Source of the DNA: Escherichia coli
Lineage (GTDB): Bacteria > Pseudomonadota > Gammaproteobacteria > Enterobacterales > Enterobacteriaceae
Assembly (NCBI RefSeq): GCF_022846255.1
Contig: NZ_AP025682.1
Reading direction: 5' to 3' (one strand)
DNA length: 64,000 nucleotides
The position numbers were made by a program. Every line of letters begins with the position of its first letter. Positions within the stretch are counted from its first letter, which is position 1. Shown here one piece after another: positions 45,001 through 48,000 of this stretch.

Positions 45001-48000
45001 TTGGCCGTGCAACCTTCATCCGGTGCGGCAGTCACGTTGGCTGACAGCGGAAATACCATCGACGGAGTCACGGGAGCGGACGGTACGGCAAGCTTTACCG
45101 TTCGTCAGGATAATACGCCAGGATATAAAACGCCGTTGACGGTGACGCTAACGGATAACGCCACCATAACGGCGACGCTGGACACGATTTTCACCGTGCC
45201 GACCAGCCCGAATGTCGCCACGGCGTATTTCTGGGGTCATATGGCGGATACCGCCACGGTAAGTGGCAAGACGCTGCATCGCCCGCTATTAAAATCGGAG
45301 TTGCCGTCAGGCGCTACCGCAGCAGCAACGCCTGATGTAAATAATGAAACCTGGGCGCTGGCGCATGTTATGGATTCCTCTAAATGGGATGTCGCGCAGC
45401 AGTGCGGCAGTATGAATAACGTGCCGAGCAGTGCCGAATTACAAACATTACACTCCGGCTTTAGCACATTGGGATGGCCGTCCTCGATAAGCTTCCCGTA
45501 TTTATCTACTGATAAGGCTGGGTCGTTCTATTGTGGTGTTGATGAAGGCTCTGGCAGTCTCAACTGTGGCATTCAGCCTGCGAAAACGCCGGGGTTTGCA
45601 ACCTGTTTCCAATAACCTTATCCACCTTGTCAATATGAGGTTCTGAAAGCCTGATACGCAACGCGCTATCAGGCTTTTTTACGTGGCTTGCGGCTTTTCG
45701 TCACAGCACTCACTTCACTGATCACTACGCCATCGCCCAGTCGAGTGGTCAGTGTCTCACCCACTTTCACCTGCTTAACCTGTTTTAACACCGTGCCATC
45801 AGCGGCGCTGGTAACGCTATAACCGCGAGCGAGTGTGGACAGTGGACTCACCGCTTCGAGATGCGTTACTGCATTACCGAAACGTTCACGCGTGGCGCTA
45901 AGCTGTGCGCGCAGGGTTTCTGCTAAACGATATTCCAGTTGCTGAATGCGCGTTTGCGCGCGATGAATCTTCGGCTGTGGATTTTGCTGATTCAGCCGCT
46001 GTGTTAATCGCTGCTGCTGTTGCCCGGCACGCTTAAGCTGATTTTCCAGCGCAAAGCTCATCCGTTTTTGCAGGCGTTCAAGCATGGTTTGTTGGCGTGC
46101 CAGCCGGAGCTGTGGATGCTGCTGCTGCAAGCGATGATGGATCTGCGTAAAACGACGCGTGCGGTTGGCGAGATAATAATCCATCGCCATCTCCAGCCGT
46201 TGACGGGCCGATTGCACCTGGCGCAGTAATTCTTGCTGATTGCGGCTCACTACTTCAGCGGCGGCAGACGGCGTTGGCGCACGCAAATCAGCGACAAAAT
46301 CGGCAATCGTCACATCCGTCTCATGCCCGACGGCACTCACTACCGGAATGCGGCTGGCAAAAATCGCCCGCGCTACGCGTTCGTCGTTAAAACTCCATAA
46401 ATCTTCCAGCGAACCGCCGCCGCGCCCGACGATTAATACGTCACACTCGTTGCGCTGATTCGCCAGTTCAATGGCGCGAACAATTTGCCCCGGCGCGTCA
46501 TCGCCCTGAACGGCGGTGGGGTAGATGATCACCGGCAGAGAAGGATCGCGACGTTTCAACACATGCAAAATATCATGTAGCGCAGCACCGGTTTTTGAGG
46601 TGATCACACCAACGCAATGCGCAGGGGAGGGGAGTGATTTTTTGTATTGCAGATCGAACAAACCTTCAGTCTGCAACTTCGCTTTAAGCTGTTCGTACTT
46701 CTGTTGCAGCAATCCTTCACCGGCCGGCTGCATACTTTCGACGATAATTTGATAATCGCCGCGCGGCTCGTAGAGCGTAATATTGGCGCGAACTAAAACC
46801 TGTTGCCCATGCTGTGGGCGAAAGGTCACCCGTCGATTGCTGTTACGGAACATCGCACAGCGCACCTGCGCGGTATCGTCTTTAAGCGTAAAGTACCAGT
46901 GACCGGAAGCCGGTTGTGTGAAATTAGAAATTTCGCCGCTGATCCAAACCTGTCCCATCTCATGCTCAAGCAGCAGACGAACCGTTTGATTCAGGCGACT
47001 AACGGTAAAAATTGCAGGGGATTGAGAAGGTAACATGTGAGCGAGATCAAATTCTAAATCAGCAGGTTATTCAGTCGATAGTAACCCGCCCTCCGGGGAT
47101 AGCAAGCATTTTTTGCAAAAAGGGGTAGATGCAATCGGTTACGCTCTGTATAATGCCGCGGCAATATTTATTAACCACTCTGGTCGAGATATTGCCCATG
47201 CTACGTATCGCTAAAGAAGCTCTGACGTTTGACGACGTTCTCCTCGTTCCTGCTCATTCTACCGTTCTGCCGAATACTGCTGACCTCAGCACCCAGCTGA
47301 CGAAAACTATTCGTCTGAATATCCCTATGCTTTCCGCAGCAATGGATACCGTAACGGAAGCGCGCCTGGCTATTGCTCTGGCTCAGGAAGGCGGTATCGG
47401 CTTTATCCACAAAAACATGTCCATTGAACGCCAGGCAGAAGAAGTTCGCCGTGTGAAAAAACACGAATCTGGCGTGGTAACCGATCCGCAGACCGTACTG
47501 CCAACCACGACGCTGCGTGAAGTGAAAGAACTGACCGAGCGTAACGGCTTTGCTGGCTACCCGGTTGTTACCGAAGAAAACGAACTGGTCGGCATTATCA
47601 CCGGTCGTGACGTGCGTTTTGTGACCGACTTGAGCCAGCCGGTTAGCGTTTACATGACGCCGAAAGAGCGTCTGGTAACCGTGCGTGAAGGCGAAGCCCG
47701 TGAAGTGGTGCTGGCAAAAATGCACGAAAAACGCGTTGAAAAAGCGCTGGTGGTTGATGATGAATTCCACCTGATCGGCATGATCACTGTGAAGGATTTC
47801 CAGAAAGCGGAACGTAAACCGAACGCGTGTAAAGACGAACAAGGCCGTCTGCGTGTAGGTGCAGCGGTTGGCGCGGGCGCTGGTAACGAAGAGCGTGTTG
47901 ATGCGCTGGTTGCCGCAGGCGTTGACGTTCTGCTGATCGACTCCTCTCACGGTCACTCTGAAGGTGTTCTGCAGCGTATCCGTGAAACTCGCGCTAAATA

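Follow-up and report, generated by a model that had tools for sequence, protein, structure and literature searches.

Terminators that overlap adjacent genes are known, and the distance from a stop codon to the terminator that follows it is mostly below 50 bp (PMC4824070; PMC1852404). In a tR2 reporter, termination efficiency was maximal beyond ~27-30 nt from the stop codon and was nearly abolished when the stop codon was only a few nt away (PMC4824070). Here we describe a hairpin at the convergent junction between a ratA-like giant adhesin gene and xseA of Escherichia coli, located in a window of 64,000 nucleotides (the whole stretch of DNA that was analyzed; contig NZ_AP025682.1). Like intrinsic terminators near stop codons, this element has a GC-cored stem-loop and then a U-tract downstream of a stop codon. 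It differs from them in that the overlapped gene is the convergent one and not the one that would be terminated, in that the template of the U-tract corresponds to two Lys codons, and in that the stop codon of the convergent gene lies inside the stem.

A second group of related elements is that of the E. coli REP/BIME (Z2-like) sequences, with which the junction hairpin has the arms GCCTGAT...ATCAGGC in common. About 60% of E. coli REPs are located between convergent genes, as is the junction hairpin, and for REPs in this position, roles as terminators and/or decay blocks have been reported (bioRxiv 10.64898/2026.03.23.713779). In contrast to REPs, the hairpin lacks GTAG/CTAC (GAAA/TTTC is found instead), is single-copy and is directly followed by six T's; its core stem is perfectly paired, which may also set it apart from REPs, whose stem has a conserved bulge.

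Bidirectional terminators (Ju et al., 2019; Wang et al., 2022 preprint) resemble the junction in having one palindromic stem-loop between convergent genes separated by a very short gap. An example of this type is present in the same window at the pdeF/ppx junction, where a hairpin (54578-54606) lies in a 38-nt gap. The junction hairpin differs from these terminators in its tails (T6 vs. TTTC) and in carrying one stop codon within the stem; given the asymmetric tails and the stop codon inside the stem, an equal function in both directions is unlikely.

Finally, the island found in the window matches the CS54 island of Salmonella and the ila cluster of ExPEC (sinH-sinI-ratA) in gene content and in its yfgJ-xseA site, with sinH (an inverse autotransporter), sinI and ratA (BIg21/InvE_AD repeats) encoded between yfgJ and xseA. 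What sets it apart is that yfgJ is flanked on its other side by a second, paralogous cluster. The name of the ila cluster and its xseA..yfgJ site in GR17 have been described (PMC12928451), and sinH has been reported to be co-transcribed with sinI (PMC12525524); a literature search for mapped transcripts of sinH-sinI-ratA or mapped 3' ends of xseA gave only this co-transcription. In the papers that we consulted on the CS54/ila island, we found no mention of a hairpin at the 3' junction, of allele-specific XseA tails or of a breakpoint inside xseA.

Structure of the ratA-xseA junction

The ratA-like gene (37534-45615, + strand) is the final gene of the sinH-sinI-ratA ('ila'/CS54-like) island. 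This ORF encodes a 2693 amino acid protein with nine BIg21 and nine InvE_AD domains (Pfam, E = 1e-285), and ends with a TAA stop codon at 45613-45615. At a 99.4%-identical locus in RefSeq, its product is annotated as 'adhesion domain-containing protein', with sinH and a SinI-family gene as neighbors. The convergent ORF is xseA (45669-47036, - strand; RefSeq annotation), which encodes the 455 amino acid large subunit of exodeoxyribonuclease VII with Exonuc_VII_L and OB-fold domains (Pfam).

The hairpin starts ~30 nt past the ratA-like stop codon, after a spacer of 29 nt (45616-45644, + strand), with 30-33 nt separating the stop codon from the GC core. An alignment of E. coli lineages shows that variation at the junction is highest in the spacer, with ~7 variable sites in 30 nt, compared with 2 in the 35 nt of the hairpin and T-tract. 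A small hairpin within the spacer (45624-45641) was considered as part of the element and rejected, being weak and losing its pairs in the GF131/ST131 forms.

From position 45640 onwards, the junction reads gttctGAAAGCCTGATAcGCaacgcGCTATCAGGCTTTTttacg. RNA folding predicts a hairpin of 12+2 bp at 45645-45678 (+ strand), with the 5' arm at 45645-45656 (GAAAGCCTGATA) and the 3' arm at 45667-45678 (TATCAGGCTTTT). The eight core pairs are perfect, and a single bulged C (45657) lies beside the inner pairs (45658-45659 with 45665-45666), which enclose a loop at 45660-45664. The REP-like core spans 45649-45674 (GCCTGATA...TATCAGGC, + strand), and a T6 tract at 45675-45680 (+ strand) provides the U-tract in the ratA direction. 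The stop codon of xseA, TGA, is the complement of 45669-45671, a position that corresponds to the 3' arm of the hairpin as read on the + strand. Within the same arm lies GCC (Ala455; 45672-45674, - strand), the final sense codon of xseA, and the complement of the T6 tract is AAA AAA, encoding Lys453-Lys454 of XseA.

The predicted folding energy of the hairpin is -18.9 kcal/mol on the + strand (z = -5.07), with an equally good fold in none of 200 shuffles, and -18.6 kcal/mol on the - strand (z = -4.84); its minimum free energy places it among the best 0.6% of all 40-nt windows. TransTermHP-style scoring, with candidate thresholds of -2 for the hairpin and -2.5 for the tail, gave a hairpin score of -12.7 on both strands, with tail scores of -5.10 (+ strand) and -3.55 (- strand). 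On neither strand of the 64-kb window does any other site combine a hairpin score of at most -12.7 with a tail score of at most -5.1, and the combination did not occur in 10 shuffles. A first terminator scan, which covered loops of 3-8 nt, did not report the junction hairpin because its loop is 10 nt long without the inner bulged pairs; this miss is no evidence against the hairpin.

The sequence-only reading had proposed a hairpin and T-tract at this junction, overlapping the end of xseA, as the terminator of ratA. Both elements are real and their coordinates were right to within 3 nt. The fold is stable on both strands, the hairpin and T-tract do cover the last two codons and the stop of xseA, and their placement, with a U-tract and 30-33 nt from the ratA stop, would suit ratA termination.

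A reading of the junction as an sRNA was rejected, as an Rfam search at a permissive E-value gave only chance-level matches (isrK at 45580-45680, with 14.9 bits vs. a gathering score of 50, E = 6.1). A search of genome contigs with the pattern AAAGYCTGRTAN{8,14}TCAGGYTTT returned no Escherichia relatives among the matches listed; this pattern is a generic terminator-like palindrome, and the matches listed were unrelated hairpins of Bacteroidota, Vibrio and others.

Predicted termination of ratA transcription

We consider it likely that transcription of the ratA-like gene stops at the junction hairpin and the T6 tract, which together would form a Rho-independent terminator derived from a decayed REP adjoining the xseA end. 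On its way out of ratA, RNA polymerase would pass the stop codon and the 30-nt spacer, transcribe the GC-cored hairpin and then six U's, which would constitute a canonical release signal, and ratA transcripts would be expected to end at ~45678-45683. The stop-to-hairpin distance of 30-33 nt agrees with the spacing derived from the reporter for folding behind the ribosome (PMC4824070). The six T's would at the same time be the complement of two conserved Lys codons of xseA, whose last codon and stop would be given by the 3' arm.

In the xseA direction, polymerase would meet the same palindrome followed by UUUC only. Since the xseA stop lies in the 5' arm, where it would be covered by the terminating ribosome, folding of the hairpin would probably be hindered by translating ribosomes in this direction. 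Neither a U-rich tract nor a hairpin clear of the ribosome was found on the xseA side, and for xseA mRNA the palindrome would be at most a weak or occasional terminator or a 3' stabilizing stem-loop. From these features we infer termination itself, its strand asymmetry and any effect on xseA. In kind, the junction would be an ordinary REP-derived terminator between convergent genes, and it implies no new mechanism.

Three features speak for the ratA direction, namely its U-tract, the distance of the hairpin from the stop codon and an ST131 substitution that is compatible with G·U pairing. The paralogous short ratA-like gene of the same window has its own canonical terminator (33685-33712), which was also counted in favor of a terminator for ratA. 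Two observations were counted against it. Pairing with the AAA upstream is possible for three of the six U's and would formally shorten the free U-tract, and two terminator-like hairpins lie between sinI and ratA (37434-37457 and 37461-37503; TransTermHP-style), where no promoter was found for ratA; they bear on where a ratA transcript would start and on how much transcription would reach the junction. Neither this pair of hairpins nor the REP-likeness of the junction had been mentioned in the sequence-only reading.

Of 5426 complete E. coli genomes, 742 carry this junction, with at least two forms of the hairpin: an exact one in 175 genomes and, in 567 genomes, sequences with 90-95% identity that have two substitutions in every example listed. 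In the ST131 form (GGC -> GGT), the hairpin keeps a G·U pair in the ratA sense (-15.5 kcal/mol) and has an A·C mismatch in the xseA sense (-10.2 kcal/mol). The E200086 lineage has a ratA pseudogene and a decayed hairpin of -8.9 kcal/mol. In XseA homologues and their contigs from other species, a ratA-like gene converges on xseA across 30-92 nt that include a hairpin in E. albertii, E. fergusonii, a Citrobacter and a Salmonella; in E. albertii and the Citrobacter, the xseA stop is likewise inside or at the edge of the hairpin.

As a tentative alternative, the hairpin could be a true bidirectional terminator that ends both ratA and xseA transcripts, either intrinsically or through head-on polymerase collisions positioned by the hairpin. 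Between the convergent genes, the element forms an almost perfect palindrome, with three A's upstream and six T's downstream, and both of its orientations pass the candidate thresholds, so that the xseA-sense tail score (-3.55) was counted against a one-directional function; the xseA-sense version is equalled by only 11 loci in the window and by 0-1 in shuffles. Bidirectional terminators that require a stem-loop have been reported to be prevalent at convergent E. coli genes (10.1101/2022.10.23.513370), and 78 REPs fall within 306 predicted bidirectional terminators (bioRxiv 10.64898/2026.03.23.713779). Also counted on this side is the finding that xseA ends without a hairpin in island-free strains (z = -1.5 and +0.1), which implies that xseA does not require one. 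Set against this, the xseA-sense tail (UUUCAGAAC, UUUC) has three U's only and passes just the loose candidate cut-off, and the xseA stop is inside the 5' arm, a position in which coupled ribosomes nearly abolished termination in the tR2 reporter (PMC4824070). Moreover, the substitutions found in ST131 and E200086 cost the hairpin more stability in the xseA sense than in the ratA sense, an asymmetry that comes from two independent events only. A stronger xseA-sense terminator-like site is located 500 nt beyond, antisense within the ratA coding sequence (45116-45174, - strand), where a hairpin (score -15.5; minimum free energy -23.0) is followed by a T-rich tail (score -4.57). This site is a candidate stop for xseA transcripts that pass the junction hairpin.

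REP origin of the hairpin

Judged by its sequence, the hairpin is a decayed REP unit. It is identical at 28 of 32 bases to the REP located between ilvY and ilvA (GTAGGCCTGATAAGCGAAGCGCTATCAGGCATTTTT), a bona fide GTAG-tagged element, and its REP-type palindrome arms (GCCTGATA...TATCAGGC) resemble a Z2-like REP at positions 8272-8296 of the window. Where the tetranucleotide GTAG/CTAC is expected, the hairpin has GAAA (+ strand) or TTTC (- strand). A 36-nt query matched a median of one and a maximum of two places per genome, corresponding to the xseA junction or the ilvY-ilvA REP; the many dispersed copies of a REP were thus not found for the hairpin in this search, which covered only copies similar over at least ~30 nt. 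At the corresponding place, the other major allele of the island has a Y-type REP with CTAC, a 37-nt element that is precisely missing from a related strain.

These data bear on an unlikely account, in which the hairpin is a mere REP relic, that is, a decayed mobile palindrome at the end of xseA with no role in termination and at most a generic 3' exonuclease block. The match to the ilvY-ilvA element, the Y-type REP of the other allele together with its precise absence in a related strain, and the REP-like hairpins at the same junction in other species all fit such a relic. What argues against it is that the T6 tract directly follows the hairpin and that the GC core is fully paired, unlike the REP of the other allele, together with the best terminator score of the window. 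Furthermore, the E. coli TnpA-REP tolerates no GTAG mutation (PMC8266576), and the hairpin, having lost GTAG, would no longer be a substrate of the REP transposase, yet it is present in essentially two forms in 742 genomes.

The island boundary and the end of XseA

In island-free strains (K-12 types), yfgJ and xseA overlap by 4 nt, and the residual alignment between island-free and island-bearing strains is limited to the T-run encoding Arg-Lys-Lys. The window is 100% identical to K-12-type xseA at gene positions 1030-1175, with a sharp drop in identity at position 1176 (window ~45861), ~190 nt inside the gene; from this position to the end, ~40% of sites are mismatched. This 3'-terminal segment of ~190 nt (45669-45861, - strand) co-varies with the island, and megablast matches to K-12-type genomes start at window position 45737. 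There is no island junction outside xseA; the boundary lies within xseA. The sequence-only reading had placed the junction within about 50 bp of the xseA terminus, which is wrong. We considered whether the island had inserted site-specifically at the stop codon of xseA and rejected this, since xseA diverges over ~190 nt up to a sharp breakpoint, a pattern typical of replacement through homologous recombination.

The codons for RKK are common to the examined E. coli xseA alleles with an unbroken tail. After RKK, and before the stop, XseA has A in the window, T in ST131, VH in K-12 types, and TSNP, TANP, AANP or NS in the other island allele. In the window, both the terminal Ala codon and the xseA stop are island-side, REP-derived DNA. 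Across Enterobacteriaceae, the C-terminal ~15 residues of XseA form a freely varying basic tail, which has been rewritten by an IS200 insertion in one strain.

It is very unlikely that the overlap is regulatory, with ExoVII levels made island-dependent by ribosome stalling at the xseA stop hairpin or by interference from ratA transcription. According to Liang et al. (2015, as summarized in PMC12306157), a REP at most 15 nt away from a stop codon causes ribosomes to stall and reduces translation, and the distance from the hairpin to the xseA stop is here negative. Strains with the island also have another XseA tail than those without it, and the two groups differ in whether the hairpin is present. 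On the other hand, the free variation of the tail and its rewriting by IS200 argue for tolerance and not for tuned control, and a working terminator would limit the sense-antisense overlap of ratA and xseA transcripts to only ~10-15 nt. That ratA expression interferes with xseA, as had been suggested from the sequence, is pure speculation. There is a slim chance that the buried xseA stop, which occurs only in island-bearing lineages (including ST131), impedes XseA termination, or that convergent ratA transcription reshapes xseA mRNA ends. The former would act via ribosome stalling and trans-translation, as reported in that summary for REPs within 15 nt. Exonuclease VII dosage and DNA-damage processing would then depend on the presence and expression of the adhesin island. 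A functionless chance palindrome can practically be dismissed: hairpins of the AAAG(C/T)CTG...CAGG(C/T)TTT type are common in many unrelated bacteria, but none of the 200 shuffles folds as well, no shuffle reaches the terminator score, and the hairpin is conserved in 742 genomes.

The value of the putative REP-derived ratA terminator lies mainly in annotation and genome architecture. The locus is a clean example of a convergent junction at which a mobile palindrome lands against a gene with a disordered Lys-rich tail, which amounts to a T-run on the other strand. Palindrome and T-run would jointly terminate transcription of the newly arrived island gene; the final codon and the stop of the housekeeping gene derive from the new sequence. 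The data show that differences in XseA length among strains (455-458 aa) are junction artefacts and not functional variants. The boundary of the ila island is corrected to a position inside xseA, which matters for delimiting and engineering this ExPEC virulence locus.

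The ratA-xseA junction and its island

In this E. coli window, the 900 bp surrounding the junction are 99.4% identical to strain FDAARGOS_497, and both sequences carry the order der, yfgJ, sinH, a SinI-family gene, a gene for a giant "adhesion domain-containing protein," xseA (opposite strand), guaB, and guaA. The giant ratA-like ORF (37534-45615, + strand) encodes a 2693 aa protein with nine BIg21 and nine InvE_AD repeats and converges on xseA (45669-47036, minus strand), which encodes the 455 aa large subunit of exonuclease VII. In ExPEC this locus is known as the "ila" cluster (sinH, sinI, ratA); it is a relative of the Salmonella CS54 island and is catalogued as a genomic region with xseA and yfgJ as its borders (PMC12928451). 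Between sinI, whose stop is at 37423, and ratA, which starts at 37534, a 110-nt gap holds two tandem terminator-like hairpins, at 37434-37457 (hairpin -15.4, tail -4.16) and 37461-37503 (hairpin -17.2, tail -2.75), suggesting that ratA is subject to attenuation or is transcribed separately, in agreement with the reported co-transcription of sinH and sinI (PMC12525524). The strongest 40-nt fold in the window is a 17-bp hairpin (34234-34271; -29.1 kcal/mol) near the 5' end of the sinH coding sequence, inside its first ~70 nt.

A second, paralogous sinH/sinI/short ratA-like cluster is located at 27321-33776, between der and yfgJ. It comprises ORFs for a 731 aa IAT_beta protein (28035-30230), a SinI-sized protein (30242-31222), and a 784 aa protein with two BIg21/InvE_AD repeats and 35% identity to the large RatA (31296-33650). 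No match among 5426 complete E. coli genomes covers 80% or more of this cluster; the best one (67% coverage, 86.6% identity) lies at the same der-yfgJ site and has a sinH pseudogene. FDAARGOS_497 is near-identical at the xseA junction, yet lacks the second cluster.

Structure of the hairpin and probable direction of termination

The sequence-only reading had placed a hairpin and T-tract at the end of ratA, overlapping the xseA stop on the other strand, and the sequence is as it described. On the + strand (ratA sense), GAAAGCCTGATA (45645-45656) pairs with TATCAGGCTTTT (45667-45678), with a bulged C, two inner G-C pairs, and a 5-nt loop between these arms, and a T6 tract at 45675-45680. The ratA stop (TAA) is at 45613-45615, and the xseA stop (TGA, complement of 45669-45671) falls within the 3' arm. 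Both strands fold stably, at -18.9 kcal/mol on the + strand (z = -5.07; 0 of 200 shuffles as stable) and -18.6 kcal/mol on the minus strand (z = -4.84). A terminator scan with a loop-length limit did not report the site, this limit being the sole reason. With the TransTermHP tail and hairpin scores, re-implemented from the published formula and energy values, the site scored -12.7 (hairpin) and -5.10 (tail) on the + strand, and -12.7 and -3.55 on the minus strand. Across both strands of the 64-kb window, only this site attained the + strand combination, and no site did so in ten shuffles; the minus-strand combination was reached by eleven loci in the window versus 0-1 in shuffles. The hairpin thus exceeds chance expectation.

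It is real, conserved, and correctly located, and regarding it as a probable ratA terminator is sensible: tail, geometry relative to translation, and variation all point in the ratA direction. In the ratA sense the tail is UUUUUU, versus UUUCAGAAC in the xseA sense. The ratA stop precedes the start of the hairpin by 30-33 nt, and in the xseA sense the stop codon lies within its 5' arm. In a tR2 reporter, termination was maximal when the hairpin lay more than about 27-30 nt from the stop codon and was almost abolished at a few nt, because the terminating ribosome prevents hairpin folding (PMC4824070).

Among 742 complete genomes with this junction, 175 carry the exact hairpin and 567 fall in a 90-95% identity band, the examples listed from which have two substitutions. 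The ST131 form has one of these in the loop; the other, GGC to GGT, keeps a G·U pair in the ratA sense (-15.5 kcal/mol) versus an A·C mismatch in the xseA sense (-10.2 kcal/mol), and also turns XseA Ala455 into Thr. Variable sites number ~7 of 30 nt in the upstream spacer versus 2 of 35 nt in the hairpin. E200086 has a truncated ratA pseudogene and a decayed hairpin (-8.9 and -5.3 kcal/mol). As these are only two events, the substitution pattern offers a hint in favor of the ratA direction.

If the terminator works, the ratA and xseA transcripts would overlap by ~10-15 nt. A terminator-like hairpin with a T-rich tail is also present on the minus strand at 45174-45116, antisense within the ratA coding sequence and ~500 nt downstream of the xseA stop; with a hairpin score of -15.5 and a tail score of -4.57, it is a stronger xseA-sense site than the junction hairpin and could conceivably be an end point for xseA read-through transcripts.

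REP ancestry and the island boundary

With a 36-nt query spanning the hairpin and T-tract, about 3000 other genomes yielded a single additional related locus: the gap between the convergent genes ilvY and ilvA, where a GTAG-tagged REP, GTAGGCCTGATAAGCGAAGCGCTATCAGGCATTTTT, is located. The two match at 28 of 32 bases, and this REP is the only close relative of the hairpin in E. coli genomes. In a K-12-like genome (L138, 1197-1232) the ilvY/ilvA REP is followed by ATTTTT, and this tail ends just a few nt from the ilvA stop. Our element has GAAA at the GTAG position and TTTC at the CTAC position of the other strand. By definition an E. coli REP combines the palindrome with GTAG, a motif in which the REP transposase accepts no mutation (PMC8266576); the element, which lacks it, is therefore REP-derived but not a functional REP. 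The other major island allele (STIN_95 and Nissle 1917 type; 581 genomes) has a CTAC-bearing Y-type REP in this position, and strain VCSW7 carries this allele without exactly the 37-nt REP. REPs at convergent gene gaps have been linked to termination and to a block of decay (bioRxiv 10.64898/2026.03.23.713779).

The island is absent from 3668 of the 5426 genomes; there, yfgJ and xseA share a 4-nt overlap, TTAA, and this island-free junction has no significant hairpin. Aligned, the three junction types share only ...CGT AAA AA(A/G) (Arg-Lys-Lys) and diverge directly after it; the terminator T-tract is thus the complement of conserved XseA Lys codons, the final codon and stop being island-side DNA. 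After RKK, XseA ends in A* in the window, T* in ST131, VH* in island-free K-12 types, and TSNP*, TANP*, AANP*, or NS* in the REP-type allele (loci L003, L010, L011, and L012), where the ending is set by a T7/T8 homopolymer difference, shifting the frame in the Lys codons, and by presence or absence of the 37-nt Y-type REP. In E7-1N7 (L008, 1582-2292), a 711-bp IS200C lies exactly between T6 and ACGTGG (equivalent to 45680/45681), immediately 3' of the hairpin and T-tract, leaving the ratA terminator intact and changing the XseA tail to ...PRNKYPPA*.

The island junction had been placed within about 50 bp of the xseA terminus; this is wrong in detail, as our comparison at coarser scale locates the boundary deeper. 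Over gene positions 1030-1175 (146 nt), xseA of the window is 100% identical to that of K-12 types, and ~40% of sites mismatch from position 1176 (~45861) to the gene end, a sharp transition that we interpret as a recombination breakpoint; the last ~65 xseA codons therefore move together with the island haplotype. The pattern suggests gain or loss of the island through homologous recombination, and not insertion at a position 50 bp away. The K-12-type tail resembles that of Salmonella, and the window-type tail that of E. albertii. At the left junction, YfgJ (33777-34001) has 74 aa ending in ...EFLPFNII* versus 71 aa ending in ...EFVLA* in K-12 types; a 1-nt difference puts the K-12 yfgJ stop out of frame, so both island-flanking genes have junction-dependent C-termini.

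Shared stem-loops at convergent genes

In other species, a BIg21/InvE_AD gene converges on xseA across gaps of 32 (E. albertii), 43 (E. fergusonii), 30 (Citrobacter species), and 92 nt (Salmonella), each containing a hairpin. Its arms are REP-like in E. albertii, Citrobacter, and Salmonella; in E. albertii and Citrobacter the xseA stop is within the 3' arm or at its edge; and the E. fergusonii hairpin has good tails in both directions. Within the window, the convergent pair pdeF/ppx has a 38-nt gap (54574-54611) that is almost filled by a single 29-nt GC-rich hairpin (54578-54606), which leaves 4-5 nt to each stop. One stem-loop tightly shared by convergent genes is therefore routine, and the sole twist at ratA/xseA is that one stop codon lies within the stem.

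Interference of ratA transcription with the xseA 3' end had been proposed from this arrangement. A more concrete regulatory possibility is ribosome stalling by the REP-type hairpin at the xseA stop, as such stalling is reported for REPs no more than 15 nt from a stop codon (Liang et al., 2015, summarized in PMC12306157). Against a tuned role, the XseA tail varies freely, its last ~15 residues being a variable basic tail across Enterobacteriaceae, and IS200C rewrites it to RNKYPPA* in E7-1N7. The xseA overlap arises as a by-product where a REP-type palindrome abuts a gene tail that is Lys-rich and dispensable, and the junction represents a new instance of well-known elements: an intrinsic terminator, a REP relic, and a stem-loop shared at a convergent junction.
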